A stretch of 48,351 bases of DNA from a virus (lineage: Duplodnaviria > Heunggongvirae > Uroviricota > Caudoviricetes): the IMG/VR virus record IMGVR_UViG_2654588181_000001, one strand, 5' to 3'. How positions within the stretch are numbered: position 1 is the stretch's first letter; every line of letters begins with the position of its first letter. Positions 18,661 through 44,330 of the stretch are shown here, one piece after another. The position numbers and the translations under genes are program-made. The notes beneath the pieces were generated by a model, which worked only from the letters and a program-made list of their open reading frames with translations, did not search any database and was not told the DNA's origin.

Positions 18661-19221
18661 TTATTCTTCCTGCTTAATAAATCGGGATTCCTGGAGCGCC
18701 TGAAGCGCAAAATTAATCTCGTCTTCAATAATGCGTTCGATCTCCCTGGCTGTTTTGCCTTCACAACGGGGAGCTGCTCTTGGAGCAATACTAAATAAGC
18801 GGCTACGCAATTCATTAGCTGCCAGAAATGCATCATCCCTGACCGCATCTTTAGCGATGAGAGAGCCTTCCTTTTCTTCAAATTCAAGGCGTTTCAGCTT
18901 TGCCTGATAAATTTTTTCTGCGGTCTTAGCCTTGTTGAATTGCACTGCAACACCGGAAGTACCACCAGCTAATCCGGCATCATCAGCGGGTAACTCTGGT
19001 TGTTCCGAAGATATCCCATGCCCTCTTTTTCCATTTTCAGCAGATACCTCACGACCAACCTGTCGGCTCGCTTCATAAGCCGCACTAGCTTTATCAAAAT
19101 CCAGCTTGCCGCTTTTCAGCACTGGAATGCGACCGGAACGACAGAGCTTCGTAACCATTGCCGGAGAAATACCTTTTCGGCGGGCAAACTCTGACTTACT
19201 GACGATGGCCATTACTTGCAA
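18661..19221 (-). CDS. terminase small subunit, Nu1-like (HTH)
   Basis: 186-aa ORF immediately upstream of terminase large subunit; N-terminal HTH. Confidence 0.55.
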   Translation of the reverse strand: MQVMAIVSKSEFARRKGISPAMVTKLCRSGRIPVLKSGKLDFDKASAAYEASRQVGREVSAENGKRGHGISSEQPELPADDAGLAGGTSGVAVQFNKAKTAEKIYQAKLKRLEFEEKEGSLIAKDAVRDDAFLAANELRSRLFSIAPRAAPRCEGKTAREIERIIEDEINFALQALQESRFIKQEE

Positions 19222-19802
19222 CCATTAGCAAGATACTGAACAAATCCCTCATGCGTTTCATGCGCGTCGTGGTACTGACGATAAACATCCAGCAACAATG
19301 CAATTTCCATATCCGTCGCGGGAATACGTTCTTTATCAATAGCCAGGTACTTAATTTGAACAACAGGGGAAGAATTATCGTCTTCTTCCTGCGGCTGTTC
19401 ATCGCTTAACATTTCGTCAAGCTCTGCATCATTAAACCCAAGCAGATCAATATCAAAATCATCATCCATTAACGCTTTGACTTCTTCGGCCAGAAGCTGC
19501 ATATCCCAGCCAGCATTTAAGGCCAGCTTGTTATCTGCAATCCTGTAAGCCTTCTTCTGTTTTTCAGAAAGGTTACTCAACCGAATCGCTGGAACTTTAT
19601 CCATTTCCAGAATTTCGGCTGCTGCAAGCCGCCCATGCCCCGCAATCAGTTCATTCTTTTCATCGATCAGCACAGGATTAGTGAAACCGAACTCACGGAT
19701 ACTGTTCACCAACTGTTCAACTTGCTCATCTGAATGAGTCCGTGAATTTTTGGCGTATCTGAGCAGCTTACCGACTGGTAAATATTCGATTTTTAGAGCC
19801 AT
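19212..19802 (-). CDS. ParB-like N-terminal domain protein (paralog 1)
   Basis: 196-aa ORF; ParB/Srx-type motif ...LIDEKNELIAGHGRLAAA...; clear paralog of 22469..23092. Confidence 0.7.
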   Translation of the reverse strand: MALKIEYLPVGKLLRYAKNSRTHSDEQVEQLVNSIREFGFTNPVLIDEKNELIAGHGRLAAAEILEMDKVPAIRLSNLSEKQKKAYRIADNKLALNAGWDMQLLAEEVKALMDDDFDIDLLGFNDAELDEMLSDEQPQEEDDNSSPVVQIKYLAIDKERIPATDMEIALLLDVYRQYHDAHETHEGFVQYLANGCK

Positions 19803-20359
19803 TTTTTAACCGCCATAACACAACAGGTTAAAGAAAACTGTTTAACTTATTGATACTAAAAGAGAAAAATGACGATCTTTTTACTCATAAAAAATCACAC
19901 AAACCAGCATAATCATCTGATTTTATTAAGTTTTTATAAGTAAAAAGGATCTTGAGATGGTGTTTTGGTTAAAAGATTGGATGTATTTGCATGATTTATA
20001 ACGATTTTTATCAGAACAACATCACATTGGTTAAAGATCTGCGCGTATCTTGATGATCTAAAAGAAAATTTTCTACTTTCTTTTTACCAGCACAAATACA
20101 GCAAAAAATCACGTTTTCCCGATATTTTTCAATGAGATGAGTAAATTTCTTTTACCGCAACTTTTAACCTAACTTTTTTCACGTTTAGCTAGCCGAACAT
20201 CGGGGTTCGAATGACCCGCATCCAACGCTTTTGGCCAGAAGGACCCAATTCTGCCGGACGATGAAACGATGCTCGTGCTCCCCCACAGACAGCCAGCGAG
20301 CGACGCTACAGAACACAGTGAATACACTCTGCATAACAACACCATCAACCACACGATGA

Positions 20360-21079
20360 TTAACGAGAGAAGGTCTTAGAAAGAATGTCATCAATAGCCT
20401 TTGTGACTTCATCAGCAAACGCATCCTCACCAGCACGCAGCGCCACGCCATGCCAATCAAGACGCTGCGAATAGTTAGGTTGCTGGATAAACGTAAGGAT
20501 CAACGTAGGACGCCGCCCAACGCGCTGCCAGACGCCTGGTTGAAGCGGGTTACTTGTACCAGGTCGAACAACAAAAAACTCCGTAGGCTTGCCCTGACGG
20601 CGATTTTGATGCGCATCTCGCTGAACTCTTAGGCCAGATAAGACCTGCTGTAATTGCCCCCGCGAAATATTCCCGTATTTGTCCAGCTTTGCGCCGGGAC
20701 CAGGAGCAAGCTGCCAGCCGTTAGGCAAATATCCACCAGCCCTTAGCGCCCCTTCTGAGCGTTTGTACTGTCGTTGGCCACCTTCGATTTGCGGAGTCAA
20801 CGTTACAGGGGCTGGCGTTCCTCCCCATTCACGAGCATACACAATGGCTGTAGGATCACTCTTCTTTGCGGCCAAAACGTAAGTAGAGTTCTGAATCCAC
20901 GGCGTGGGCCTGTCAAATACCCGATTAATTTCATTCTTAATCGCAGCCTGAGAAGCCTTTGCCGTTCTGGTTGCCGCAAGCGCCATTGCGAACGGCAATT
21001 CGCGTTCTTCAAGGCGCTGGAGTTGTCGTTGAATATCCTGAGAAGAAAAATCCATCTTTATCTCAATTCTGTCAGCCAC
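20360..21079 (-). CDS. hypothetical protein
   Basis: 239-aa ORF embedded between ParB-like genes. Confidence 0.5.
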   Translation of the reverse strand: MADRIEIKMDFSSQDIQRQLQRLEERELPFAMALAATRTAKASQAAIKNEINRVFDRPTPWIQNSTYVLAAKKSDPTAIVYAREWGGTPAPVTLTPQIEGGQRQYKRSEGALRAGGYLPNGWQLAPGPGAKLDKYGNISRGQLQQVLSGLRVQRDAHQNRRQGKPTEFFVVRPGTSNPLQPGVWQRVGRRPTLILTFIQQPNYSQRLDWHGVALRAGEDAFADEVTKAIDDILSKTFSR

Positions 21080-21095
21080 CAGCGCCTCCTACACA

Positions 21096-22475
21096 CTACT
21101 TAATCAACGGCCGGAAAGCCGCCAGCACATCATCAGATCGTCCGATTGTTGAACCACCAGGCAACGGCAACTCAAACTCAAAACGAACAGCTTTCTCCAG
21201 ACTCGCCCAACTAAGGGAATCATCGTTAATGACGTGCAAATACCAGCTCTTACAGTTGAATATTGACCGCTTAATCCTGAAACCATGTACACGACACAAC
21301 TGCTTCACTTCCTCATCAGAGTGAAACTTCTGGTAAAACCAGTGCCCCTTCCGGTACAACGCGGTAAAACCGTTATGATCAATAAAATAAAGCCGGCTTT
21401 TGGAACTCGCCGCTTGTGTCTGCTTCAGGACTGTTTCCAGCTCTCCACGGCTACGGCCAGAAAAGAATATTGACCCACCAGCTTTACACAGCCCTTTCAG
21501 AACCGTCAGAACGGACCATTCAGCCTCGACACTATCGACCGAGTTCAAAACGCTATCGCAAATCACGTAGTCGTAACGCCCTCGCGTTTTTAAGTCGTCC
21601 ACCAGCGTATCAATCATCCGGTTTGTTGCGGTCCTATCCAGAGTGTTTCCAGCGCCCTTACGGCGGAAAAGCTCAAGATCATGCAGGTTATATCCCTTTG
21701 CCCTGAGCATTCGCGCGTAGTCTCCCTGACCCGAACCAAAATCAATTCCTCTTGGCGTCTTGGCAATGATCGGGAGGATCAACGACTCATACAGGTTTGA
21801 TTTCAGGCTGCCACCATTACGCAACCGCATAAGCTGCGCATACGTCTGGATGTATGTTGTTTTCTCCAGATGAGAATACTCAAATACACCATAAGTTTTA
21901 TTCAGATAACTTTGGTATTTTTCCTTCTCAACATCAGGGATCACAAACACCGTTAGCGGTGTGCGCGTCATCTTCGCTGCTAATGCATACTGAGCACAGT
22001 GAATAACCTCGCCAGACTGCGTAGCAACACAACCACCCCACGGACCATACTTGATAACCAGTTCCGCTATGTTCTTTCGAACATATGCCATTTTCGCGCG
22101 CATATTGCCTGAAATCTGGCTTGCCGATACCTGAACAAAACCATGCTTATCTCCCAGACCTGACACCCTGCAACGCTCATCTCCGCTATCAAAATCCGTT
22201 CCGTTATGCAGTTGGTTAAACCGTACTTCGTCGTATACCGTCGTTTCACAGGGCAACACATACACCGCAGCACGCGTTATTCCCAACTTACGTAGCGCCT
22301 TCGTCCTTTGGTGTCCCGCCACCAGCAAATCGCCGCGCACTATCAATGGCTTCACAAGCCCCAGCTCCCTGACGCTTTCCGCCAGCCTCGCAAGATCATC
22401 CTCACCGATAAAACGCGGGTTATATTCCGCGCCGCGTAGGTGCGTTATGTCGTAATTGAGATGAAGCATCAGCAC
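21096..22475 (-). CDS. ParB-like N-terminal domain fused to SAM-dependent methyltransferase domain
   Basis: 459-aa ORF; N-terminal ParB-like segment (LVAGHQRTKALRKLG); class-I MTase motif I-like IDFGSGQGDYARML and DYVICDSVLN. Confidence 0.65.
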   Translation of the reverse strand: MLMLHLNYDITHLRGAEYNPRFIGEDDLARLAESVRELGLVKPLIVRGDLLVAGHQRTKALRKLGITRAAVYVLPCETTVYDEVRFNQLHNGTDFDSGDERCRVSGLGDKHGFVQVSASQISGNMRAKMAYVRKNIAELVIKYGPWGGCVATQSGEVIHCAQYALAAKMTRTPLTVFVIPDVEKEKYQSYLNKTYGVFEYSHLEKTTYIQTYAQLMRLRNGGSLKSNLYESLILPIIAKTPRGIDFGSGQGDYARMLRAKGYNLHDLELFRRKGAGNTLDRTATNRMIDTLVDDLKTRGRYDYVICDSVLNSVDSVEAEWSVLTVLKGLCKAGGSIFFSGRSRGELETVLKQTQAASSKSRLYFIDHNGFTALYRKGHWFYQKFHSDEEVKQLCRVHGFRIKRSIFNCKSWYLHVINDDSLSWASLEKAVRFEFELPLPGGSTIGRSDDVLAAFRPLIK

Positions 22476-23092
22476 ACCTCCCCAGCCAGCAATGCGGATA
22501 CAAATCCGATATAGCTGCCATTATCATCAACATAACGAGATACCGCGCAGTCAAAACGATCCGCTTCCTCATCCGTTGCCGGGATTTTATGACCTCCAAA
22601 TGACAGGTACTGAACTTTTACGCCTGATTTGGCCTCATCCTTCTCAAATGGGATATCCATACCCTCTGTGTCATCGTAGACCGCCGCACTCAATAAGTTA
22701 TCCAGTTCGCGCTGAGTAAAACCAATTGAGTCCAGAGCAAAATCATCGGCCGCAAGATCTGCAAGTTCCGCGCTTAACAACTCTTCATCCCAACCAGCAT
22801 TCAGCGGAATACGGTTGTCGGCCAGACGATATGCCTTCTTCTGATTCTCCGTTAGCCCTTCCAGAACAATGCAGGGAACGTCATCCATCCCCAACTGAGT
22901 GGCCGCAGCAATTCGACCATGACCAGCAATTACAACGTTGTTCTCGTCTATCAGGATCGGATTAGTCCATCCGTACTCCTGTATGCTGGCAACAATCTGA
23001 TCTACCTGCTCCACGGAGTGTGTGCGAGCGTTCTTTTCATAACCAATCAACACAGAAAGTGGTAAAGAAACCACATTAAGATGTTTTGTCAT
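22469..23092 (-). CDS. ParB-like N-terminal domain protein (paralog 2)
   Basis: 207-aa ORF; ...ILIDENNVVIAGHGRIAAA...; about half identical to 19212..19802 by eye. Confidence 0.7.
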   Translation of the reverse strand: MTKHLNVVSLPLSVLIGYEKNARTHSVEQVDQIVASIQEYGWTNPILIDENNVVIAGHGRIAAATQLGMDDVPCIVLEGLTENQKKAYRLADNRIPLNAGWDEELLSAELADLAADDFALDSIGFTQRELDNLLSAAVYDDTEGMDIPFEKDEAKSGVKVQYLSFGGHKIPATDEEADRFDCAVSRYVDDNGSYIGFVSALLAGEVC

Positions 23093-24700: not shown

Positions 24701-24966
24701 TCATCATCTCCTGCCGCACATACAACCTCACAAAAAACATCAGCGGAATGTTTCTTTTTGAATGAATGGCGCTCAAAACCGCACTCAATATCAGGCGCAA
24801 AAACATCCACCACATACGGTCTTTCAGAATGTTTGTTTTCCCAACGATAAACCGTAGTGACGTTGAAATGTTTTAACGCTTCACGGAACTCAACGCTGCC
24901 CGTCAGGTTTTTTGAGGTCAGGTATTGCAGGAGGTTTTTTACTACTTCACGGTCTTGTACTTTCAT
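24697..24966 (-). CDS. hypothetical protein (first gene after promoter-leader cassette copy 1)
   Basis: 89-aa ORF; ATG preceded by CCGGAGATAACCCG leader. Confidence 0.5.
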   Translation of the reverse strand: MKVQDREVVKNLLQYLTSKNLTGSVEFREALKHFNVTTVYRWENKHSERPYVVDVFAPDIECGFERHSFKKKHSADVFCEVVCAAGDDE

Positions 24967-25083
24967 CGGGTTATCTCCGGTTTAACCAGGGCGGGTATCG
25001 CTCGGTTTCGGGTATAACCATAGGAAATTTTTTCCCACCTGTAAAGCACCTTTTATATAAATATATAATTATATAATTCTATG
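24967..25083 (-). promoter_or_regulatory. repeated promoter-leader cassette, copy 1
   Basis: Near-identical to 31746..31865 and 41210..41330; -35 TTTACA, 17-nt spacer containing GGAAAAAATTTCC, -10 TATGGT, ~60-nt conserved leader, GGAG then ATG. Confidence 0.6.
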
Positions 25084-25666
25084 CCACTTGCCAGAGAGCA
25101 TCATGCAACTGGATACCTCCATTGCACTGGTTGCCCCAGCCATGCCAGCCATCAGGTAAATCACCGCGAGCAAACAGCTCAATACGGGGAACATCACCTA
25201 ACAGCCTTACCAGCTTGTCACGAACCACATCAGGCTTCCGAGAATGCTCCAGACGAGGCGATGTAAACGACTGAATGATCCCCGCATCAAGGCGGGTCGG
25301 CAGTTTGCCTTTTACCGCAAACAAGCAATCTTCACTGTTTGCACGAGTCATATGCCCCATCCCCATCACCAGCTTATCTGGTTGTCGGCTACCACATTTG
25401 TTCCATGTGAAGCCCTTCATGGTCATCAGCCTGAATCCCCATGCTTTCACCACCAGCAACGCTTCTTCTGGCTGAGTCGGAACCCACCACATGGCCAACA
25501 AACACGATTCAGGATTAGCAAGCTGCCAGACAGGAATACGAGCAATATCCTCAGCTTTCATCGTTGGATACTTAAAACCAGCGCCACGATTCCCATCCTT
25601 ACACTTGTCTTTGTATTCCCAGGGGGGATCTGCATAAATCAGATTAAACAATGCAATTGCCTCCAT
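25079..25666 (-). CDS. DNA N6-adenine methyltransferase, MT-A70-like
   Basis: 195-aa ORF with catalytic DPPW motif (LIYADPPWEY). Confidence 0.75.
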   Translation of the reverse strand: MEAIALFNLIYADPPWEYKDKCKDGNRGAGFKYPTMKAEDIARIPVWQLANPESCLLAMWWVPTQPEEALLVVKAWGFRLMTMKGFTWNKCGSRQPDKLVMGMGHMTRANSEDCLFAVKGKLPTRLDAGIIQSFTSPRLEHSRKPDVVRDKLVRLLGDVPRIELFARGDLPDGWHGWGNQCNGGIQLHDALWQVA

Positions 25667-25973: not shown

Positions 25974-26049
25974 TGGTGGCCCCTACCGGATTTGAACCGA
26001 TGACCGTGCGATTATGAGTCGCCTGCTCTAACCACTGAGCTAAGGGGCC
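25974..26049 (-). tRNA. tRNA with CAU anticodon (Ile2/lysidine type or Met), CCA encoded
   Basis: 76-nt cloverleaf: GGCCCCT acceptor stem, D-arm TAGCTCAGTGGTTAGAGCA, anticodon loop CTCATAA, T-loop GGTTCAAATCC, 3' CCA; first ~42 nt match my recollection of E. coli ileX. Confidence 0.8.
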
Positions 26050-26218
26050 ATATTTGATTTGTTTGTCTGGTGTGGCGCCGCGCACGAAAATCCCAGCCAA
26101 TAAATTCAGGATTTTTGGGCGCGGCGGCATATCAGACAAACATGGTTGATGCGTGCGCCCATGAGAAAAGCGCATAGAATGTTGTAACTATATATTTATA
26201 TAATTATAGAAATATATA

Positions 26219-26428
26219 TTACTTTCGGCAGTTGATTTCCCATGCCCTGTTATGAGCCAGAATATCTTTCTTTGTCTGGCGGTCCATAACATCGATGTCG
26301 TGATCAGTCAGGTAGATGGGCTTTACCCAATCACAGGCGGTATCAACCACCACCGGGACGCTTCCACGACTCCCGCAGCTCGCGATCAACATCGTCATCA
26401 GCCATATGGTTAACACTCTGCTGTACAT
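26219..26428 (-). CDS. o-spanin (Rz1-like lipoprotein), overlapping in alternate frame
   Basis: 69-aa ORF with lipobox-like LIASC; overlaps 3' end of Rz-like gene. Confidence 0.5.
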   Translation of the reverse strand: MYSRVLTIWLMTMLIASCGSRGSVPVVVDTACDWVKPIYLTDHDIDVMDRQTKKDILAHNRAWEINCRK

Positions 26429-27479: not shown

Positions 27480-27825
27480 AGATGCTACCGAGATCCTGGC
27501 TGTTTACGAACGTGAGGATTTTAATGGTCAATGCAGCCACAATAACCGCACCAAGCGCATCCAGAGGACGATCGTTGTAGCTGGTCCATTTGGCAAGAAA
27601 TGAGCCAACTAACGGCGCTCCAATCACTCCAACAATGAACGATGTAAAGAAATAGCCAATCAGCTTGAGACGGCTAATATTCACCGCTGTAGCAACATAG
27701 AAAACAGCGCCAGCAAATGCCCCGAATACAACGCCGTAATCAATACCAGTTGCAATACCAAAAACGCTGGCACCCATCAGGCCACCAGCAGCAACGGCCG
27801 TACCGGAAATTGGTTCTGCTGACAT
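27430..27825 (-). CDS. putative holin
   Basis: Hydrophobic multi-TM ORF; start chosen at ATG 27825 preceded by GAGGA, because the upstream ATG at 27873 lies inside a terminator hairpin. Confidence 0.55.
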   Translation of the reverse strand: MSAEPISGTAVAAGGLMGASVFGIATGIDYGVVFGAFAGAVFYVATAVNISRLKLIGYFFTSFIVGVIGAPLVGSFLAKWTSYNDRPLDALGAVIVAALTIKILTFVNSQDLGSIFGMLSRLRGGGSNGKQ

Positions 27826-30322: not shown

Positions 30323-30621
30323 GCCACAGCCCCTCTCAACGGCTTAACTTTGGCTAATAAGGTGTTAAACAACATGGAGTTAGGATTCATGCCAAATGGC
30401 AATTCCGGTTTAGCGGAGTAGTACAGGCAACCATTTATTTTCCTGGTTGTTATCTGTCCTTCGGCAACCATGCTTCTCAGTCTGCAACGCATAGAGTTCT
30501 GCGACACACCAATGTGCTCCGCGATTACGTCCACTTTTGAACATGGGTGATCGGTCAGGAAATTAATCACATCTTGGGGGTTAATAATTTTGCGTTTCAT
30601 TGTCGAGGCGTCCTTATACAT
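30319..30621 (-). CDS. small HTH DNA-binding protein (first gene of 4-gene operon); start may be second ATG at 30600
   Basis: 100-aa ORF; AT-palindrome motif and terminator hairpin immediately upstream. Confidence 0.5.
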   Translation of the reverse strand: MYKDASTMKRKIINPQDVINFLTDHPCSKVDVIAEHIGVSQNSMRCRLRSMVAEGQITTRKINGCLYYSAKPELPFGMNPNSMLFNTLLAKVKPLRGAVA

Positions 30622-30677
30622 TTATATAAATATATAATTCTATATACGGCGGGAGACATCCCGCCGTAGGCTTACTG

Positions 30678-31745
30678 TCAGGCTTTCAATAGCGATTCTT
30701 TCAGATATCGGGCATCAGCCAGGGCGTTTGGAGTAATCTTGCGAACCCATGCATTACGGGTTGGACTCCACTTAAAGGCGCGTGATTTAAGCAGCGAACG
30801 AATGTTTGCCTCTGGTTTGCCAGGGAAATAAAACAGGATGCGGTTATCCTCTGGATCTATCTCCATAGAAAAGCCGTCGTATTCTTCGCGCTGTGCTCCT
30901 GTTACAGACTTGACCGATTCAAGCTCCTTAATACGGCTCTGTAGTCGTTTGATTTCGGCGTTATTGTTGCTCAGTGCGTATGAAGGGAATCCGATGCGCC
31001 CACAGAAATCTCCGGCCAGTAACTCTTTGGCTTCGCTTTCTGTAAACCTGAGATCGATTAATGCAGAAAGCTGCTGTATTTGGTCTTTTTTGTATTTGCG
31101 AATGGCCTTATTTGCGGCCTTCATTTTGACGTGTGACTTCATGCAGCCTTGCAGCTTACGAAGCAACTTAAATAGCGCATCAGGATCATCAGACGAAATT
31201 CCATTACGACCAACACCTGCGGCTTTGCTCTCGTAGTGTGATGCTTTACTTTCGCATTCAACAAACGCTTTTCTGAATAACGCATCAGCTTTAGACAAAC
31301 GGCGGCGATGGCCTTTCGCGCTATAATGGTCAACTAAAATCGGCTGGCCTAACGGGATCACATCCAACAGGTCATGCGCTCGCTTATGCGCTACCGCACC
31401 TTCTTTTCTGGCTTTTTCTGCACGAGCAATATATCGGGCAAGACGCGCGTTCTGGCGTTCCTGATAGGTGTTTACGTAATCATCTCCGCGCTGCTGCTGT
31501 TCAAGCCATGCTTTGCGCAGATCTTCTGTTACGTCCACCAGCTCCGCAGGGATACAACCAGTTTGGGCTTCATAAGAGTAACCATCCTCATAGATACGCC
31601 CATCGTCTTCAACAAAGAAAAAGGTTTCGTGCTCATCGCTTTTGACCATACGACCATTAACATGGCGTAATAGGTAGCCAGTATCAGTGCTTAACAGGCT
31701 GTTAGGGTTGTTGATCCAGTCAGAAATAATTACTTGTTTATTCAT
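30678..31745 (-). CDS. conserved hypothetical protein (possibly DUF3560-like)
   Basis: 355-aa ORF directly driven by promoter-leader cassette copy 2. Confidence 0.55.
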   Translation of the reverse strand: MNKQVIISDWINNPNSLLSTDTGYLLRHVNGRMVKSDEHETFFFVEDDGRIYEDGYSYEAQTGCIPAELVDVTEDLRKAWLEQQQRGDDYVNTYQERQNARLARYIARAEKARKEGAVAHKRAHDLLDVIPLGQPILVDHYSAKGHRRRLSKADALFRKAFVECESKASHYESKAAGVGRNGISSDDPDALFKLLRKLQGCMKSHVKMKAANKAIRKYKKDQIQQLSALIDLRFTESEAKELLAGDFCGRIGFPSYALSNNNAEIKRLQSRIKELESVKSVTGAQREEYDGFSMEIDPEDNRILFYFPGKPEANIRSLLKSRAFKWSPTRNAWVRKITPNALADARYLKESLLKA

Positions 31746-31865
31746 CAGATTTCTCCGGTTTAACCAGGGCGGGTATCGCTCGGTTTCGGGTATAACCTTA
31801 GGAAATTTTTTCCCACCTGTAAAGCACTTTTTATATAAATCTATAATTATATATTTATAGATTTT
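31746..31865 (-). promoter_or_regulatory. repeated promoter-leader cassette, copy 2
   Basis: Same ~115-bp element as copies 1 and 3; -10 variant TAAGGT; leader ...CCGGAGAAATCTG ATG. Confidence 0.6.
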
Positions 31866-33774: not shown

Positions 33775-34265
33775 TCCTCAAGCCTCCCAAGTGCTGAACG
33801 CCGGGCGTTGCTAATCTCCTTATGAATCAGCTCGATATCGCTGGAATCTTTATTCTTAAGCTCCAGCACGGTAATCGCATCACGAACCTCTGAAACGGTT
33901 ACGTGTGAGTGTTTCCAGCGAGCAATGAATCGCGGACCGCGTAGATTGCAACGCTCCGCAGGCATCCCCAGCTCAGAGAAAACCGCTTTCAGCCTTGATA
34001 AGCAGTTAACAGGGAGATTCCCTTTGATCTTGTTCTGCCGAACCGATGTGCCATCGCTACGCTGGCGCTGACGTTCGGCAAAATCTGCCGCCCATTGCTG
34101 GACGTTAATCCGGCCTTCCGAATACGCCACCAGCAGCGTCAGGTTATCCGCACGAGGGAATCTCTCGAAGCGATACCAGGCACCAATCAGTGATGACGTA
34201 AAGCCAAACTTTCTGGCAACACCAATTTGGCCTCCATTTTCGTCAACCCACTCCTGAAAGGTCAT
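33771..34265 (-). CDS. HTH DNA-binding protein, Cro-position early regulator
   Basis: 164-aa ORF divergent from CI-like gene across operator-rich region; N-terminal HTH; SD GGAG upstream. Confidence 0.55.
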   Translation of the reverse strand: MTFQEWVDENGGQIGVARKFGFTSSLIGAWYRFERFPRADNLTLLVAYSEGRINVQQWAADFAERQRQRSDGTSVRQNKIKGNLPVNCLSRLKAVFSELGMPAERCNLRGPRFIARWKHSHVTVSEVRDAITVLELKNKDSSDIELIHKEISNARRSALGRLEE

Positions 34266-34284
34266 TTAACGAACTCCAGTTAAA

Positions 34285-34402
34285 ACCACGATATGTGGTA
34301 TTAAAACCACATATCGTGAGTTTTTCAATGGGCGAAACAAAAAATAACCTTCTATTTGTGGTCCACCTCTCGTCTTACCATGTGAAAACCACTAAATGTG
34401 GT
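34285..34402. promoter_or_regulatory. divergent promoter/operator region with ACCAC-N5-GTGGT operators
   Basis: ACCACGATATGTGGT (34285..34299), ACCACATATCGTG (34306..34318), GTGGTCCAC (34357..34365), ACCACTAAATGTGGT (34388..34402). Confidence 0.65.
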
Positions 34403-34439
34403 AATGTATAAATAACCCACCATTCACGATTGATGAGAC

Positions 34440-35096
34440 ATGAAAAGCAACGACGAGAACATCAAGAAAGAAATAGGTCTGCGCATTCAGACTCTACGGA
34501 AACAATCCGGCATGACTGCCGGAGATCTCCAGCAAGTCACTGGAATAGGCTTAAGCACCTTGCAGAACTATGAGGCCGGATTAAGACAACCATCTATACC
34601 TGCCATCAAGAAAATCGCGCACGCCCTAAAAGCATCAGCGCCTTACATCGCGTGCTTAACAGATAACCCGTTCCCACCCCAGAATACTAACGCTCCTGTT
34701 ATTCCTGGGCTTGTAGCTATAAAAAATGACATAGCATCGCACGCCGGAGAAAAGCCTGTGCTGGCGATAGAACAGGAGATTTTACGAAGCAAGAACATCA
34801 ACCCATCGTCTCTGTCAGTTCTCCAGAGCAACGATGAGTTAATGTCACCAACAATATCCCCTGGCTCCCAAGTCCTGATTAATACAGACGATACAGAGAT
34901 TCATGAGGGGATCTATGCCCTTGAAGACAGAAATGGCCTAGTTGTTTTGAGGCACTGTAGAGTCATACCGGGTGACAATGCTGTTATGCTGTCAACCGAA
35001 AGGGATGCTGAAATGAACACTAAGCATCTGAATAACGAGGAATTTAAGCGTTATAAAGTTCTTGGCCGCGTAGTTAGTGTTGTCAACTGGTTATGA
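34440..35096 (+). CDS. CI-like repressor (HTH plus S24/LexA-like autocleavage domain)
   Basis: 218-aa ORF; N-terminal HTH; C-terminal ELMSPTISPGSQVLIN resembles S24 Ser-nucleophile region. Confidence 0.8.
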   Translation: MKSNDENIKKEIGLRIQTLRKQSGMTAGDLQQVTGIGLSTLQNYEAGLRQPSIPAIKKIAHALKASAPYIACLTDNPFPPQNTNAPVIPGLVAIKNDIASHAGEKPVLAIEQEILRSKNINPSSLSVLQSNDELMSPTISPGSQVLINTDDTEIHEGIYALEDRNGLVVLRHCRVIPGDNAVMLSTERDAEMNTKHLNNEEFKRYKVLGRVVSVVNWL

Positions 35097-35188: not shown

Positions 35189-35563
35189 ATGGAATTACAT
35201 ACAGCCAATAAAAACGAAACTCTGATCACTGCTGGAATCGAAATCCAAGCGTTGAACATAGCGATTGAGTGTATGTTATGCCAAATCATTGATAATGAGA
35301 AAGATATCGACTGGATAGAATCTATCCTTCATCTGGCATCAGAACAAAAAGTCTGCCTCAAAACGGCCTTACAATACGATGTGCCAGCGGTATCGAAGCT
35401 GTGCCAGCCATTGATGGCATATAACAGAGCTATTATTTCTGTATGCCTCATGATTCTCGATGAAAACACCCCTCTTAGCGACCGCTCAGAAGCTGCTCTA
35501 ACCCTCTCACGTAAACAGCGACAGCTAGCAAATCAACTGATATCAACGATAGCTGACCTCTGA
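35189..35563 (+). CDS. hypothetical protein downstream of repressor (superinfection-exclusion position)
   Basis: 124-aa ORF preceded by operator-like ACCACATTTTGTGGT at 35140..35154 overlapping a TTGACA. Confidence 0.45.
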   Translation: MELHTANKNETLITAGIEIQALNIAIECMLCQIIDNEKDIDWIESILHLASEQKVCLKTALQYDVPAVSKLCQPLMAYNRAIISVCLMILDENTPLSDRSEAALTLSRKQRQLANQLISTIADL

Positions 35564-35713
35564 CTGCAAGCGGGCTAACGCCCGCTTATATGATTATAGA
35601 TTTATATAATTATATAAAACGCTTTTCATCCGCCAAAAAGTTGGTTATGCTTACCTCGTTCTATAAATATAGATTTATAGAATTATATAATCAAACACAT
35701 GGAGTCTCGACAA

Positions 35714-36367
35714 ATGACTATCTCTGTAGGTATTTTCAACGGAAAAGGTGGCGTAACCAAATCAACAATTGCCCGTGCTTTAGCAGTTGCTTATGCAAAG
35801 GCTGGCTGGAATGTATGCCTGATCGATATGGATGTGCTTAACGGAACGGTAACGCGTTGGGTACAACGCAGAATGGCCAACAATATCGAACCAGCAATCG
35901 CGGCGCAGCCGTGCGGCACACCATCACAAGTCCAGAAAATCATCGAATCAGAAGTATACGACCTGGTTATCGTTGATGGCGGTGCCTACGCATCTGAATC
36001 AGTACCGAAGCTATCTGAATTTCTGGATATGGTTATTTTGCCAACCCGATTCTCTACCGATGACCTGGAAACCACCGTTAACACTGCTCACGGCATCGTT
36101 AAAAAGGGTGTACCAATCAAGAAAATTTGCATGGTGTTTTCCGGCGCGGCTGAAAACGAAGCTGACTATATTGAAGCCCAAGAGTACCTGGCTAATACGC
36201 CATACTTTGTTGTCGATAAGTACATTCCCCACAAGCCAGCTCTGAGCAAAGCTCAGGATAAGGGCTTAAGCCTCATTGAATGCTCATACGTTGCGCCACG
36301 CAAAAAGGCAGACGACGTTATTCAGGGGATTATCAACCAGCTTGAGGCTCTGACTACTGCCGCGTAA
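35714..36367 (+). CDS. parA: ParA-family partition ATPase
   Basis: Deviant Walker A GIFNGKGGVTKST at N-terminus; ATG at 35714 with GGAG 10 nt upstream. Confidence 0.85.
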   Translation: MTISVGIFNGKGGVTKSTIARALAVAYAKAGWNVCLIDMDVLNGTVTRWVQRRMANNIEPAIAAQPCGTPSQVQKIIESEVYDLVIVDGGAYASESVPKLSEFLDMVILPTRFSTDDLETTVNTAHGIVKKGVPIKKICMVFSGAAENEADYIEAQEYLANTPYFVVDKYIPHKPALSKAQDKGLSLIECSYVAPRKKADDVIQGIINQLEALTTAA

Positions 36368-36410
36368 TATATAATTATAGTTTTATAGATTTATATAAGA
36401 GGGGATACAC

Positions 36411-36659
36411 ATGGCCGCACCATCAAAACCACCAAAGAAGAACAGCAAAGGCGTACCGCCATCGATCGAACAACCGCAAGTTTTCGACCCGACTGAAACG
36501 CCAACCAGAACCAAATCAGGTGGGGCTCAAATGGCGTTTAATGTCGACCCTGAATTTAAACGCGAGTACAAAACGTTCGCCAGCTCAATGGATATGTCAT
36601 TGAAAGAAGTGCTGACAAAGTCTTTTGAGTTACTCAAGGCTCAATACAACCAGAAGTAA
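36411..36659 (+). CDS. small centromere-binding partner (ParG-like RHH)
   Basis: 82-aa ORF directly after parA; disordered basic N-terminus then MAFNVDPEFKREYKTFA RHH-like segment. Confidence 0.55.
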   Translation: MAAPSKPPKKNSKGVPPSIEQPQVFDPTETPTRTKSGGAQMAFNVDPEFKREYKTFASSMDMSLKEVLTKSFELLKAQYNQK

Positions 36660-36688
36660 GAGAAGGTGACGGCCTCCAGCGCCAACTG

Positions 36689-36871
36689 TTGGCCGTCGCG
36701 ACACAACAAGGGGAATTTGTTATGTCCGAACAACAATATACACGGTTACTGAAAACTCGTCTAACCGACCTCAAACGGCTGCAAGCTGGTCGCTTATTTG
36801 CCCTGCTATCCACCAGGCCAGAATGGGTACGTGAAGCAGTTCTGAAAGGCTTAATGCGCTCCAGCGTTTAA
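36689..36871 (+). CDS. hypothetical small protein
   Basis: 60-aa ORF. Confidence 0.3.
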   Translation: MAVATQQGEFVMSEQQYTRLLKTRLTDLKRLQAGRLFALLSTRPEWVREAVLKGLMRSSV

Positions 36872-36880
36872 ATTCAACCA

Positions 36881-36903
36881 TAAAAAAGGCCCCCGAAGGG
36901 GCC
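36881..36903 (-). terminator. rho-independent terminator
   Basis: GGCCCC-CGAA-GGGGCC hairpin followed by T-run on minus strand. Confidence 0.5.
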
Positions 36904-36909
36904 TAATCG

Positions 36910-37029
36910 CTACTTGCTGCTAATGTTTATCGTCACATTCAGAGCGTTATCAGTAATCTTCCAACCCTCCCCATGTGGCGTAAACAAAGCTCCAGTAACA
37001 ACGATAAAAATACACATACAGTATTTTTT
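36910..37029 (-). CDS. small hydrophobic peptide (40 aa) with own SD and terminator
   Basis: MKKYCMCIFIVVTGALFTPHGEGW...; AAGGG 8 nt upstream of ATG; terminator immediately downstream. Confidence 0.35.
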   Translation of the reverse strand, partial: KKYCMCIFIVVTGALFTPHGEGWKITDNALNVTINISSK

Positions 37030-37785
37030 CATTGTGTGGCCCTTACAGGCCGTTTCACGGCATCCCCACCGACGAAAACAACGCGAGAGCAAGCACGGCT
37101 GCTTGTGCTTGCATGTACGGCAACAGGAAATCCTCCCCTAAAGTCGGTGCCCGGGTGCGAATCGGCGGGAAGGTCCACAGGTATTTTACGATTATTTTAA
37201 GATTAGTAATAGGAAAGAAATTAAACGAAAAAAACAGTTTATTTTCACAAAATCAGTAACCTACCCACAATCTGTGAGTTTGCTGACACAACAAGAACCA
37301 CAATTTTTTGATGTATAATAGTGGACTATTATTACCTTTTGAGTAAAATCAATTTGCTGCTTGTGCTTGCGTGGTTGTTTATACAACAACGTAATGCTGA
37401 AAGGACCGCGAATCCGATCAGCACGAAAGAACCGTCCTCAATAGGGCGGTTTTTTTGTTTCTGCCTACCAATAAACCCACGCTATGTGGTTGTCTCTGTT
37501 AAAATCCCGCCGTATTGACATGAATGCGCCATTGGTGGACACTTTCCGAGCCGTAGCAAAATCTACGGTCGGGATTAGCCTCCTGAATAACACGATGGCG
37601 CATACCGCGTTAGCGGTTTTTTTATGCGTAGAGCACTGTTACGCCCAAATTATGGTGGGTCGTACAGGGGCGGAGAAATCCGCGCCGGTTCGTCATTGTG
37701 TCCGGTAAGGCTAACCCTGTACGGCTCACCACCATTTGATTAGCCTCGAATGGCGGTGATAGTTCCATATACTGGAGATATCACA

Positions 37786-37977
37786 ATGACAAACCTACCC
37801 CATGACTATTACGTCAACCTCGTAAAGATCCTTCTCAAGAAAGCCTCATACGCCGATAAATTCCGCCTGGCTGAAATCATCGAGCGCGAAGCTATGCGCA
37901 TCGCCAGCAACGATAACGCTGTTTCTGACGCAAAAATCTCCCTCGTAACCAAAGTAGTTATGGGAGGTGCAAAATGA
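37786..37977 (+). CDS. small ORF overlapping antirepressor start (icd-like position)
   Basis: Stop overlaps ant ATG (ATGA at 37974..37977); start uncertain. Confidence 0.35.
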   Translation: MTNLPHDYYVNLVKILLKKASYADKFRLAEIIEREAMRIASNDNAVSDAKISLVTKVVMGGAK

Positions 37978-39116
37978 AAACGCTTCCGACCGTTAACACC
38001 CTACAGCCTATCCTGCATAACCAGATCCCCGTTATCACTAGTGAACTTCTGGCGCAGTTATACGGAACAAAAATCAAAAACATTTCTGATAACTTTCTGA
38101 ACAACACGACGCGATTCGTAGCCGGAAAGCATTACTTTAAAATTGAAAAAAACGAATTACGCGAGTTCAAGAACAGACCCGAAACAATCGGGTTAGTTGG
38201 TAAAAATGCCCGCTCCCTAATTCTCTGGACCGAACGCGGGGCTGCACGTCACGCTAAAATGCTCGAAACCGATCAGGCGTGGGATGTATTCGAACGGCTG
38301 GAAGACTGCTATTTCAGCCAGAACGCGCAAACGGCCGCGACCGTAACCGTCTCGCCAAACAATGCTCGTGAGGTTGTCGATACGCTCAACGCCAAACCGA
38401 TGTTTTACATTAAGGTGTGCAATAACGAGCCACTCACAACCTCAGCCGATGTTGCCCAGGCATTCAGCACCACAAACAATTCCATCGTTATGGCCATCGA
38501 TGCGCTACGCATTCCTCGCACGGCTGCGGCGCGTCACTTCTTTAAAGAGCAACGACCGTTGGAAGGAAGCGACCGCGAAATAACAATCTATCGCATGACA
38601 AAAGACGGATTTACCTTGCTCATGGAGAGCATCGACGGTCCAGGCGTGAAAGATATCAAGCTGGCCTACATTGAAGCCTTTAACGCTATCAGCAGCGTGT
38701 TAAAAACACAGTACGAGCGTGATCTGGCTAAACGACTGTACCAGGAAAAAACGATTATCCGCGCGGCAACAGAGCATAATCGGCTATTAACGGAACCGAA
38801 CTACAGGAAGGAACTAATCAAGGAGTTTGACAAGGCAACAGGGAAAACCAAAGCGGCGCTAAATCTGCCAGCAATGACTCAGGAAAATGTGATATCAGCC
38901 TTACTTCTTGATCTGCTCAGAAACGCCAGAGCACTTATCAGCTTTGACGAAAACCTGAATCCTCAGCTCAAGCTACTACCACCGACAGGCAAAGTAGTCG
39001 ACCAGGCTGATCACAACAGCATACTCAGCGTACTGGATGCAAACCTGCCAGCCAGGACACTACAGGATCTGATAAAAACATGTGCTGATAAGCTGGCACA
39101 GAAAAGCAGACCATAA
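37974..39116 (+). CDS. antirepressor (Ant-like)
   Basis: 380-aa ORF; N-terminal KilA-N/ORF6N-like segment; operator-like CCCACGCTATGTGGT upstream at 37477..37491. Confidence 0.7.
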   Translation: MKTLPTVNTLQPILHNQIPVITSELLAQLYGTKIKNISDNFLNNTTRFVAGKHYFKIEKNELREFKNRPETIGLVGKNARSLILWTERGAARHAKMLETDQAWDVFERLEDCYFSQNAQTAATVTVSPNNAREVVDTLNAKPMFYIKVCNNEPLTTSADVAQAFSTTNNSIVMAIDALRIPRTAAARHFFKEQRPLEGSDREITIYRMTKDGFTLLMESIDGPGVKDIKLAYIEAFNAISSVLKTQYERDLAKRLYQEKTIIRAATEHNRLLTEPNYRKELIKEFDKATGKTKAALNLPAMTQENVISALLLDLLRNARALISFDENLNPQLKLLPPTGKVVDQADHNSILSVLDANLPARTLQDLIKTCADKLAQKSRP

Positions 39117-40828: not shown

Positions 40829-41209
40829 TTACTTAACGAGGAATAAAAATGGTTTATTGTTAGGCGGTGTAATCGGGGCTGGCTCGCTTTTGCTCATGCG
40901 ATCAGTGTACCAGGCCAACTCCTTGTCAAAGTAAGCCTGATTAAAATAGGCCATGAATGTAGTTTCAAATCCATAACGACCGCTAATACGCAGCATCTGA
41001 TTGCCGTTCTCTGTTTCCAGATATACCTGGGCACGCTCCTGATTCTCCTTCAGCCAAGTTAAAGCCTCATCGCACGAGGACACACGATACTCATCATCGT
41101 AGCCGTCATCGATGCGGCTTGAAGAAGAACGGCAAATCACGCCAACAGAACCAGCCAGGATAGTTTGAATTTTAAGGAAAGCGTTTTTGCGGATTTTAAT
41201 CATGCTCAT
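40829..41209 (-). CDS. hypothetical protein (driven by cassette copy 3)
   Basis: 126-aa ORF; ATG preceded by CCGGAGATAACCCG. Confidence 0.5.
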   Translation of the reverse strand: MSMIKIRKNAFLKIQTILAGSVGVICRSSSSRIDDGYDDEYRVSSCDEALTWLKENQERAQVYLETENGNQMLRISGRYGFETTFMAYFNQAYFDKELAWYTDRMSKSEPAPITPPNNKPFLFLVK

Positions 41210-41330
41210 CGGGTTATCTCCGGTTTAACCAGGGCGGGTATCGCTCGGTTTCGGGTATAACCATAGGAAATTTTTTCCCATCCGCAAAGCACTTTTTATA
41301 TAAATCTATAATTATATAATTCTATGAGCA
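41210..41330 (-). promoter_or_regulatory. repeated promoter-leader cassette, copy 3
   Basis: Same element as copies 1 and 2; -35 variant TTTGCG; preceded by terminator 41326..41358. Confidence 0.6.
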
Positions 41331-41372: not shown

Positions 41373-41672
41373 TCAGATGTTAAACGCTATTCGTTTTCCT
41401 GTGGGAAGCTCAACATCCAGGCTTAATTTGCCTCCCATAGCTTCAACGTAACGCTTTAATGTCGCCAGCTTTAAATCATTTCCGCGCTGCTCCAGCTTTG
41501 TTACTGCTGGCTGGCTTATACCCATCGCCTCAGCAACCTGTTTTTGTGATAACTGGAGTTCTTCACGCATCATCTGCAAGCCGACCTCAAGAATCATCTC
41601 ATCTGCCATTTCTTTAATTCGCGCCTGGCTTTCAGGTGAACGGCTGGCAATCACCTCATCTAATGTTCTCAT
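41373..41672 (-). CDS. HTH antitoxin (HigA-like)
   Basis: 99-aa XRE HTH ORF; start overlaps toxin stop (ATGA). Confidence 0.65.
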   Translation of the reverse strand: MRTLDEVIASRSPESQARIKEMADEMILEVGLQMMREELQLSQKQVAEAMGISQPAVTKLEQRGNDLKLATLKRYVEAMGGKLSLDVELPTGKRIAFNI

Positions 41673-42019
41673 TACTTGCTCTCCAGTGTGTTCAGATGTG
41701 CTGCAAACTCATCCTCAGCTATACGCACCAGTTTTTTATAAAACCGCTTATCGTTACTTTTGTCTCCTGCACAAAGAACGATGGCCCGGCGAATCGGATC
41801 GAACGCATAAAAGGCTCTTATCGGACGGCCAGAAAACTGAACGCGAAGCTCTTTCATATTTTTGTACCGAGAACCTTTTACGGTATCGGCATATGGCCTG
41901 GGTAACTCAGGTCCGTAAACCTGTAGATTTTTCAAATCAGCCAAAACCTTTTCCTGAAGAGCGTCTTCTTGCTCATTTAGCCAGTCGTCAAATCGCTGGC
42001 TAAAAAGTACCGTCCACAT
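41672..42019 (-). CDS. RelE/ParE-superfamily toxin (HigB-like)
   Basis: Start at ATG 42019 (MWTVLFSQRFDDWL...); ...ELRVQFSGRPIRAFYAFDPIRRAIVLCAGDKS pattern; upstream inverted TATAACC repeats. Confidence 0.65.
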   Translation of the reverse strand: MWTVLFSQRFDDWLNEQEDALQEKVLADLKNLQVYGPELPRPYADTVKGSRYKNMKELRVQFSGRPIRAFYAFDPIRRAIVLCAGDKSNDKRFYKKLVRIAEDEFAAHLNTLESK

Positions 42020-43481: not shown

Positions 43482-44330
43482 TTAATGTTGGAGTGATTTC
43501 CAGGTCTTTCTTAACCTGTTATAACGCTGCTCAACGAGGGATCGTAAATATGCAAGGTCAGCTCCAGGATACATGCCATCAGCAAATTCCTGGCTAACCT
43601 CTCTAGTGATTTGATGACGAAGTTCGGCCTCTCCCTTTTCCCGAACAAGACGCGCAGCTCTCTCCGCTGCTTTCTGTTTTGCCTTTATCTCTCTGGCCGT
43701 CTTCCTCTGACGCCATACATTCTCCATCTGCTCCTGAATAACAATACGCTTATAATCAGCCTCCGTTATCGCTTTTTTAAGCCGTTCGCTATTCTTCGCA
43801 TTGAAGTAATTAAGTTTCTGGCTAACCGCACGTCTCCATGCTTGTTCAGTAATACCAACGGTTTCCAGCAGTTGATCACGAATCTCTATTTTCGCTGGCC
43901 AATACTGTTTATTCACCCGATCCCAGCGACGTTCATAATCAATAAAACCTAACGCTTTCAGTTGCGACAACGCCCTTGTACAGCGTGTTATAGACTTGTT
44001 CCCAGCTTCGGATACGGTAGACAGGCCGCAAAAATCAGCCAACGCCTCAGCACTGGCCAGAACCCGCTTAGAAATGATGTTTACATGGTGCAAAATCGCA
44101 GCAATCACAGCATTAATCGCCCGACGACGATGCTCGTTTATCCGACGCTTCCGCTCTGACGGTTGATTAACGTAGAACGCAACCTCACACGTAAGATCAC
44201 GACCATTAATGCGCTGTAAAGCATCAGATAACACCAGCGGCAGCTTGTGCGTATGGTGCTTTGGAGGCTGGAACTCCGGCGACAAATTACAAACGTAAGC
44301 TGAACGTAGAGACGGCATTGGTCTATCCAT
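43482..44330 (-). CDS. repA: plasmid replication initiator, IncFII RepA-family
   Basis: ...GLSTVSEAGNKSITRCTRALSQLKALGFIDYE... resembles IncFII RepA1 core as recalled; start uncertain (TTG 44360, ATG 44330 or 44318). Confidence 0.75.
   Translation of the reverse strand: MDRPMPSLRSAYVCNLSPEFQPPKHHTHKLPLVLSDALQRINGRDLTCEVAFYVNQPSERKRRINEHRRRAINAVIAAILHHVNIISKRVLASAEALADFCGLSTVSEAGNKSITRCTRALSQLKALGFIDYERRWDRVNKQYWPAKIEIRDQLLETVGITEQAWRRAVSQKLNYFNAKNSERLKKAITEADYKRIVIQEQMENVWRQRKTAREIKAKQKAAERAARLVREKGEAELRHQITREVSQEFADGMYPGADLAYLRSLVEQRYNRLRKTWKSLQH

Follow-up and report, generated by a model that had tools for sequence, protein, structure and literature searches.

The DNA analysed here, 48,351 nucleotides of the virus record IMGVR_UViG_2654588181_000001 in IMG/VR (Caudoviricetes) and hereafter called the window, contains a small locus in which a gene for a ParA-type ATPase (parA) is followed by a gene for an 82-amino-acid (aa) protein, which we refer to as the adaptor, and then by a short open reading frame (ORF3) that is a possible third gene of the operon. 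Two AT-rich repeat arrays (A and B) are located upstream of parA, a third (C) lies in the spacer between parA and the adaptor gene, and five more (D to H) are found elsewhere in the window. Based on the RefSeq annotation transferred from a 99%-identical plasmid, the window represents essentially the whole of a circular phage-plasmid of about 48 kb. It carries genes for head, packaging and a P2-like contractile tail, along with a lysis cassette, and is of the myovirus type. Feature coordinates are collected in Table 1.

The ATPase has a deviant Walker A motif (FNGKGGVTKST, with lysines K11 and K16), an A′ motif LIDMD and a Walker B motif DLVIVDGG. It matches the Pfam family CbiA (E = 1.7e-12, 47.9 bits against a cut-off of 25.4) and PHROG 164, ‘ParA-like partition protein’ (E = 8.9e-39). 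Its alignment with ParF of plasmid TP228 (PDB 4dzz) extends over residues 6-118 and includes the Walker A, A′ and B motifs, with a similarity that is marginal (E = 3e-4). The segment GKGGVTKS lines up with KGGSGKT in ParF and with KGGVGKS in MinD/Mrp-type ATPases. The protein is small and has no N-terminal DNA-binding domain, as the Walker A motif begins at residue 11 and the family and ParF alignments begin at residues 5-6.

The adaptor is labelled ‘hypothetical’ in every public record examined, and it matches PHROG 6024, to which no function is assigned in PHROG. At a threshold of E ≤ 0.001, an exhaustive search gave 62 relatives, and some 55 of these have lengths of 62-117 aa. In the family alignment an N-terminal motif, MAxxxKPPKKxxKGxPP, is kept, followed by a variable linker and by the C-terminal pattern LNFKVxxEFxRExKxFAxxxDxSMxELLxxxFELYK, which is a strand-helix-helix signature. 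In an AlphaFold2 (AF2) model built from a 54-sequence alignment, residues 1-40 are a basic, proline-rich tail with a predicted local distance difference test score (pLDDT) of 62-68, and residues 41-80 are an extended segment and two helices with a pLDDT of 90-95. The secondary structure consists of a β-strand at residues 41-46 (MAFNVD) and helices at 47-59 and 64-80; the protein was modelled as a single chain, and hence the strand is not closed in the model. An earlier AF2 model based on 10 near-identical sequences was discarded (pLDDT 65, with a fold search that returned ribosomal noise). Using Foldseek against the PDB, the best 50 matches to the final model were almost all ribbon-helix-helix (RHH) proteins, namely the PutA DNA-binding domain, CdbA, StnY, AmrZ, CopG, Arc, ParD, AtaR and MazE6, with target-normalised template modelling (TM) scores of 0.64-0.87 and root-mean-square deviations of 1-2.3 Å. 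When the 54 family members were compared with Pfam, 19 matched RHH_10 (best E = 8.8e-6), 12 matched Antitox_RHH and one matched ParG (E = 0.018). The family profile aligns with ParG (PDB 1p94) in register across the strand and both helices, that is, the whole RHH domain, at E = 0.69, and hhalign gave a probability of 53% and a pairwise E-value of 1.4e-4 for ParG, with a weaker result (12% probability) for omega. The ParG sequence used in the hhalign comparison agrees with that in the 1p94 alignment. The C-terminal domain is thus confidently predicted to be an RHH domain, which in our proposal would form dimers. The window protein gave no significant match to the profile of the ParG family (Pfam PF09274) and so lies outside it; on sequence grounds, it is a distant analogue or possibly a remote homologue of ParG rather than a family member.

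An earlier note on this DNA, made from the sequence alone, had proposed that parA, with its deviant Walker A motif, and the small gene behind it constitute a type Ib-like partition pair, and that the small protein combines a disordered basic N terminus with an RHH-like core. The type Ib-like assignment of ParA and a small RHH partner passes every computational test that we ran, namely the ParA matches, the RHH model and the occurrence of the pair in relatives. GKGGVTKST is indeed present and the CbiA profile recognizes the protein, and the poorly ordered tail and RHH-like core appear in the AF2 model much as described. The note had also said that the absence of an RHH fold from the small protein would speak against its proposal, and here the AF2 model, the Foldseek matches and the RHH_10 matches of relatives all point to such a fold.

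In all eight relatives examined, the adaptor gene lies 0-43 nt past a CbiA/ParA gene encoding 213-224 aa. Some of these relatives are phage-plasmids with the gene order cI-like repressor, small gene, ParA, adaptor and 49-aa ORF. Others are ordinary plasmid contexts, as in L011, where an RPA replication protein gene precedes the pair and a resolvase gene follows it.

Each array is a 32-bp element made up of exactly four contiguous 8-bp boxes in register. The box consensus is WTATAKAW, in which T4 and A5 are invariant in 32 of 32 boxes. The box TTATATAA is its own reverse complement, and variants such as TTATAGAT and ATCTATAA are found in both orientations. Array A begins at the base immediately after a GC-rich hairpin that is likely a terminator insulating the par operon, and this hairpin-then-array arrangement also occurs in the Salmonella and Serratia relatives. 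Array B starts 73 bp past the start of array A and ends 10 nt ahead of the parA ribosome-binding site GGAG. Array C overlaps the parA stop codon and is directly followed by the ribosome-binding site (GAGGGG) and ATG of the adaptor gene. It is limited to the E. coli/Salmonella lineage, and in L004, L005, L006 and L009-L012 the spacer between the two genes is 0-12 nt and contains no array. Beyond the adaptor gene, an inverted repeat (GACGGCC...GGCCGTC) may act as an attenuator or RNA processing site; equivalent hairpins are found in Salmonella, Serratia, L009 and L012, and homologues of ORF3, annotated or called, in L007, L006, L009 and L012. The hairpin and ORF3 follow the adaptor gene in phage-plasmid relatives only (E. 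coli, Salmonella, Serratia, L009 and L012) and not in the plain plasmid relatives.

The earlier note had described the AT-rich repeats as palindromes, two upstream of parA and one between the genes. The positions were correct, although each ‘palindrome’ is in fact a run of four boxes, and the repeats are far from confined to the par locus, as five more arrays of identical format are present. Since the boxes consist almost exclusively of A and T, and intergenic DNA is AT-rich, it might be supposed that the repeats are chance low-complexity sequence with no function. However, a four-box scan found exactly eight arrays in the window and none in 20 shuffles, with laxer thresholds adding none, and a 16-nt core pattern has 31 matches where 1.5 are expected. 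The shared register of the four boxes and the two invariant positions, the syntenic arrays of a Salmonella relative and the different box of a Serratia relative (below) also argue against this idea. A chance origin of the arrays is excluded.

All eight arrays point to a downstream gene. They lie within the early/plasmid half of the element, between 25 and 41.3 kb, with none among the structural genes, and the five distant arrays are all on the minus strand, in one shared orientation relative to the gene that each precedes. A GC-rich terminator hairpin immediately precedes each of arrays A, F and H, which are thus positioned at the start of insulated transcription units. Furthermore, every array ends in TATAA(A/T/G), which resembles a −10 element. 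The 93-aa protein encoded behind array F is winged-helix-like (MarR/FaeA-like).

Three other identities of the arrays were considered. RepA iterons are ruled out, as no array is near repA (43.5-44.3 kb). Sites for the host proteins IHF, H-NS or Fis are unlikely, because the box differs between the E. coli and Serratia lineages. Operators of the cI type are also unlikely, given that the divergent promoter region of the cI-like repressor (34265-34440) has no array and that tandem 8-bp boxes are ill-suited to helix-turn-helix (HTH) dimers.

Comparison with relatives shows how the repeats change with the cassette. The Salmonella plasmid pAR-0407-1 encodes an adaptor that is 89% identical, and has the same box and arrays at syntenic positions. 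In the Serratia plasmid pJSRIV006_2 (L008), the adaptor is 40% identical, and there are six arrays of TTAAATAT/ATTTAAAT-type boxes, two of them upstream of parA and four elsewhere. Scans of the whole elements found no E. coli-type array in the Serratia plasmid and no Serratia-type array in the window. The entire set of arrays thus changes with lineage, as expected of a single binder encoded by the element, and not of a host factor or a chance AT tract. More generally, short repeats particular to each relative adjoin the cassette, and most of them have an 8-bp period: ATACATAA/ATATGTAT in L004, TTCTTTAA in both orientations in L009, GTTATTCC in L012, GTAGAAAACCA in L011, TCATGAATGCATG in L010 and TTAGCGAAAT in L005. 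In the non-phage relatives (L005, L010 and L011), the repeats occur at the two flanks of the cassette only. As phage regulators are absent from these relatives, this confinement ties the repeats to the ParA/RHH cassette.

The Serratia plasmid shares the early/plasmid region of the window, including genes for the Ref nuclease, DUF1064, the cI-like repressor, ParA, the adaptor and RepA. Its structural module is that of a lambda-like siphovirus, in contrast to the contractile tail encoded in the window, and the combination of a shared early region with a different structural module indicates that whole modules are exchanged between phage-plasmids.

Behind three of the distant arrays (D, G and H) lies a leader of about 85 nt with nearly the same sequence each time and with a ribosome-binding site and ATG at its end. 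The leader precedes three unrelated genes; its copies are near-identical within a genome and have diverged among the E. coli, Salmonella and Serratia elements. Folding with RNAalifold yields two hairpins. The first, UAGGA-N7-UCCUA, is also a palindrome at the DNA level, and in the second, two base pairs have changed in a compensatory manner, from AA/UU to GG/CC. The leader corresponds to no Rfam family, and among phage records it was found in this phage-plasmid family only. Possible roles of the leader are those of a cis-regulatory RNA or of a second operator. Behind arrays B and F the sequence is instead GGAnnCTCGACAA-ATG. This start region, including the spacer between ribosome-binding site and ATG, is kept in E. 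coli, Salmonella, Serratia and one metagenomic relative (L009) despite wide divergence.

These arrangements raise the question of whether the arrays belong to the partition pair at all. They could be promoter/operator modules of another regulator of the phage-plasmid (an HTH protein or other factor), or a shared AT-rich promoter type, with the par pair using only some of them or a different centromere. Most arrays (five of eight) lie at a distance from par, before unrelated genes, the fusion of three of them to the conserved leader resembles the design of a transcription unit more than that of a centromere, and the −10-like ends of all arrays fit the same idea. However, L005, L010 and L011 lack all phage regulators, and yet lineage-specific repeats flank their ParA/RHH cassettes, and only there. 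Sites composed of tandem 8-bp boxes in mixed orientation are known for RHH dimers, ParG among them (PMC3130281), and not for those of HTH proteins. The lack of arrays in the divergent promoter region of the cI-like repressor also counts against that regulator, and three of the eight arrays are at par, one of them immediately before the RHH gene. We therefore think it unlikely that the arrays belong primarily to a factor other than the adaptor.

Among known partition systems, the locus is, by analogy, most like ParF/ParG of TP228 and delta/omega of pSM19035. ParG binds 4-bp boxes separated by 4-bp AT-rich spacers, with one dimer per box, in direct or inverted orientation, and in TP228 the operator and centromere are adjacent arrays that both function as centromeres (PMC3130281). 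In TP228 (ParF/ParG/parH-OF, a type Ib system of an E. coli plasmid), as here, a gene for a small Walker ATPase is followed by one for a protein of about 76-82 aa whose N-terminal tail is flexible and whose C-terminal domain is of the RHH type, and sites with an 8-bp period, direct and inverted, lie upstream of the operon, where in TP228 they are both operator and centromere. The systems differ in that the box here is an AT-only near-palindrome, WTATAKAW, and not ACTC; the boxes here are in discrete four-box modules, in contrast to 8 + 12 contiguous boxes in TP228; one array here lies between the two genes and five elsewhere on the replicon; and the tail here is rich in lysine and proline, unlike the ParG tail with its arginine-finger region.

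In pSM19035 (delta/omega/parS, of inc18 plasmids in Firmicutes), the RHH adaptor is also a regulator, and parS repeat arrays in mixed orientation overlap the promoters of several operons. Arrays of 7-bp repeats overlap the copS, delta and omega promoters, and at least four contiguous repeats are needed for omega to activate its ParA (PMC9499535); the arrays in our element have exactly four boxes. In contrast, the omega repeats are non-palindromic heptads in arrays of 7-10, compared with 8-bp boxes in fours here, and our element has a Gram-negative host, a phage-plasmid replicon, and mostly phage or accessory genes downstream of its arrays.

N15, itself a phage-plasmid, has separate, dispersed centromere sites, IR1-4 (PMC7205306). 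The scattering of adaptor sites over a replicon, tying segregation to gene control, is shared with SopAB of N15 (four dispersed IR sites) and with KorB-IncC of RK2/RP4 (12 dispersed operators), although KorB and SopB belong to type Ia systems, being large HTH ParB proteins with single palindromic sites, unlike an 82-aa RHH adaptor and four-box arrays. The KorB protein of RK2 is a partition adaptor that also controls other operons, and SopB, by its binding, affects the expression of phage genes in N15. In geometry, the best precedent for four copies of TTATATAA is the met-box operator of MetJ (Somers and Phillips, cited in PMC3130281), in which every tandem 8-bp palindromic box takes up one RHH dimer and adjacent dimers contact each other cooperatively. 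MetJ is otherwise different: it is a metabolic repressor of the chromosome that works with a corepressor and takes no part in partition, and it has no detectable sequence relationship to the adaptor.

From these comparisons we propose the following mechanism. A ParA-ATP dimer would bind the nucleoid non-specifically. The adaptor would dimerise through its C-terminal RHH domain and insert its β-ribbon into the major groove of one WTATAKAW box per dimer, such that four adjacent dimers would cooperatively cover one 32-bp array. The basic, flexible N-terminal tails (KPPKKxxKGxPP) would contact ParA-ATP and stimulate ATP hydrolysis, which would separate the plasmid copies along the nucleoid. Arrays A and B may be centromere and autoregulatory operator at once, and array C may be a separate control point for the adaptor gene. 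At arrays D-H, which have promoter-like positions, the adaptor would probably repress or tune the respective operons, like omega of pSM19035 and KorB of RK2, and these arrays may double as extra partition sites, like the dispersed SopB sites of N15. By analogy with these systems, then, control of further operons or the use of several scattered centromeres is a probable additional role of the adaptor. The analysis shows what ParA is, the predicted RHH fold, the structure, number and non-random nature of the arrays, the conserved pairing of the genes and the change of the boxes with lineage; we infer box binding by the RHH protein, promoters within the arrays, ParA stimulation by the tails and replicon stabilisation by the locus.

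Several observations weigh against this proposal. The ParA match to the NCBIfam equivalog NF041546 (ParA_partition) covers model positions 2-200 of 203 (E = 4.3e-22), but its score of 78.6 bits is below the curated cut-off of 180 bits; by its sequence relationships and architecture, ParA is a divergent branch of the ParA_partition/ParF superfamily that lies outside the equivalog. The adaptor sequence itself matches nothing in Pfam, NCBIfam or the PDB sequences. Of the families that the earlier note had named for a profile search of the small protein, RHH is matched by relatives of the adaptor, and ParG by a single one among 54. The individual Foldseek E-values are 0.3 or more, which is not significant, the domain being very small. 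A simple sigma-70 consensus scan found no plus-strand promoter overlapping arrays A, B or C; its hits there are on the minus strand only and arise from the palindromic TATAAT-like boxes, so the promoter role of the arrays is deduced from their context. The confinement of the five distant arrays to a 16-kb segment is not the placement expected for partition alone. Finally, the co-variation of box and adaptor would also be expected if another co-diverging regulator of the phage-plasmid were the binder, and genome-wide co-variation cannot single out which co-diverging protein binds.

The regulatory appearance of the arrays also suggests the possibility that the pair has little or no role in segregation. 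The RHH protein would then be mainly a transcriptional repressor of lysogeny-state genes, with ParA as a co-repressor or accessory factor, and inheritance would depend on RepA copy control and toxin-antitoxin systems. At least seven transcription units have an array in an operator-like position before them, repression is a known second role of RHH partition proteins (PMC9499535), and the element also has a HigBA-like pair and a ryfA-type locus. Yet the same cassette is found beside replication and resolvase genes on ordinary plasmids (L011), which is the classic position for partition genes; ParA keeps all its ATPase motifs; and the tail motif is kept in a family that is about 35-45% identical overall, as expected if the tail contacts ParA. 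Moreover, a 48-kb replicon with an IncFII RepA should have a low copy number and depend on active partition. A purely regulatory pair consequently seems unlikely to us.

Five features of type Ib systems are present, namely a ParA within the small size range of about 200-230 aa, the sequence KGGxxK[ST], an adjoining adaptor gene, a predicted RHH domain with a flexible tail, and iterated repeats. With the reservations given above, we consider it probable that the locus is a type Ib-like active partition cassette of the phage-plasmid that works by the proposed mechanism.

A broader hypothesis is that the adaptor is the master regulator of a regulon extending across the phage-plasmid, with all eight arrays being both repressible promoters and dispersed centromeres. 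Segregation or copy state would then be coupled to lysogeny-state genes, and the leader would constitute a second, lineage-specific layer of trans-acting control, by RNA or protein. The candidate units of this regulon are those of the DUF3560 protein, the winged-helix regulator, the tRNA-Met and methyltransferase, and two small-ORF operons, three of which have the leader. We offer this hypothesis tentatively and regard it as doubtful.

Phage-plasmids are increasingly seen as carriers of resistance and virulence genes, and to our knowledge P1, N15 and a few others are the only ones whose maintenance functions have been worked out in detail. The assignment of a ‘hypothetical’ adaptor as a predicted RHH centromere-binding protein with a defined 8-bp box would provide a handle for studies of curing, incompatibility and stability. 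If the basic proposal alone holds, the locus is a routine type Ib cassette, and the gain is mainly better annotation. What goes beyond the routine is the eight-array layout and the conserved leader. This layout offers a compact natural system in which to study how a partition adaptor wires gene expression in an element that switches between plasmid and phage, and if the adaptor does govern the arrays and leaders, the phage-plasmid would have a compact partition-plus-regulon system.

Table 1. Positions of the par locus, the arrays and other features. Coordinates refer to the window unless a relative is named.
Feature	Position	Strand	Remarks
Hairpin GCGGGC-TAAC-GCCCGC	35570-35585	+	GC-rich; just past stop codon of 124-aa gene; read from sequence
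Array A (distal): TTATATGA TTATAGAT TTATATAA TTATATAA	35586-35617	+	Upstream of parA; candidate centromere or operator
Array B (proximal): TTCTATAA ATATAGAT TTATAGAA TTATATAA	35659-35690	+	Candidate parA operator, proposed to overlap promoter
parA, 217 aa	35714-36367	+	Alternative start ATG at 35699; Pfam CbiA, PHROG 164, ParF alignment; RefSeq name ‘ParA family protein’
Array C: ATATATAA TTATAGTT TTATAGAT TTATATAA	36367-36398	+	parA-adaptor spacer
Adaptor gene, 82-aa predicted RHH protein	36411-36659	+	Proposed centromere-binding adaptor (ParG/omega-like); AF2, Foldseek, family Pfam matches, hhalign
Inverted repeat	36668-36697	+	Between adaptor gene and ORF3
ORF3, 49 aa	36722-36871	+	PHROG 22022, E = 7e-4
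Array D: GCATAGAA TTATATAA TTATATAT TTATATAA (minus-strand reading)	25053-25084	-	Then leader and 89-aa ORF (24966-24697)
Array E	26188-26219	-	Just past lysis cassette; upstream of tRNA-Met and MT-A70 methyltransferase gene
Array F	30614-30645	-	Between terminator hairpin and ribosome-binding site/ATG of 93-aa gene (30600-30319)
Array G	31831-31862	-	Then leader and DUF3560 gene (31745-30678)
Array H	41296-41327	-	Directly after terminator of HigBA-like pair; then leader and 126-aa ORF (41209-40829)
Leader copies, window	24964-25052, 31743-31830, 41207-41295	-	
Leader copies, L007	6651-6740, 14924-15013, 24054-24143		
Leader copies, L008	16944-17030, 19281-19366, 26241-26326		
GGAnnCTCGACAA-ATG start region, window	35691-35716, 30598-30613		
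GGAnnCTCGACAA-ATG start region, L006/L008	Upstream of parA; 27715-27730		
GGAnnCTCGACAA-ATG start region, L009	2330-2345		
cI-like HTH/S24 repressor	34440-35096		Annotation transfer
124-aa gene	35189-35563	+	Between cI-like repressor and array A; PHROG 7632, function unassigned in PHROG
HigBA-like pair	41373-42019	-	RelE/HigB-type toxin and HTH antitoxin; RefSeq annotation transfer, 99%-identical plasmid
RepA, IncFII-type	43482-44318	-	Pfam IncFII_repA, E = 7.6e-44
ryfA match	36882-37178	-	Rfam, 140 bits, E = 5e-36
Terminator hairpin of ryfA locus	36887-36904		
isrK match	37550-37623	+	
C4 antisense RNA match	37648-37736	+	
ORF6N/Rha antirepressor	37974-39116		
tRNA-Met (CAT)	25974-26049	-	
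Three ParB/Srx N-terminal-domain proteins	19212-23092	-	Annotation transfer

Around the par locus, a stretch of 1.6 kb recurs at 95-99% identity in 61 non-mobilisable plasmids, which measure 44-52 kb and come from E. coli, E. albertii, Salmonella and Klebsiella. One of these plasmids, NZ_CP009073.1, is present in the reference strain E. coli ATCC 25922. The region is also matched by the Yersinia phages vB_YpM_39/41/44, three isolates. The par locus is found in 71 (1.3%) of the 5426 complete genomes of E. coli, and 71 of its 72 occurrences are on plasmids of 46-49 kb, consistent with stable extrachromosomal maintenance. A literature search found no paper on this phage-plasmid family or on the three Yersinia phages. 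Membership in the pSLy3 phage-plasmid group was considered and dropped, as papers place pSLy3 in the SSU5 supergroup.

The RepA and toxin-antitoxin genes that the earlier note had combined with the partition pair into a plasmid-maintenance set are both present, the former recognized by its Pfam match and the latter, as a RelE/HigB-type toxin with an HTH antitoxin, through the mapped RefSeq annotation. The gene set thus stands; the element that carries it is a phage-plasmid and not a plain plasmid.

The 124-aa gene upstream of array A is syntenic in all phage-plasmid relatives, where it encodes 72-130 aa, and is absent from the plain plasmid relatives. Directly downstream of the par operon is the ryfA RNA match, whose terminator hairpin coincides with the right edge of the par finding. 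The ryfA locus contains a small hydrophobic ORF ending in ...KYCMCIFIVVTGALFTPHGEGWKITDNALNVTINISSK, and it probably resembles a type I toxin-antitoxin system and as such extends the maintenance set.

The three ParB/Srx N-terminal-domain proteins adjoin the terminase genes. Their genes are not adjacent to parA and have no arrays inside, and the proteins are probably related to packaging or to nucleases rather than to partition. Downstream of array E, the tRNA-Met gene lies between the lysis cassette and the MT-A70 methyltransferase gene. Annotation transfer also places an antirepressor region in the window. Here, the isrK and C4 antisense RNA matches precede an ash-like gene and a gene for an ORF6N/Rha antirepressor, a stretch that, on the basis of these matches, is an antisense-controlled antirepressor module like immI of P1/P7.

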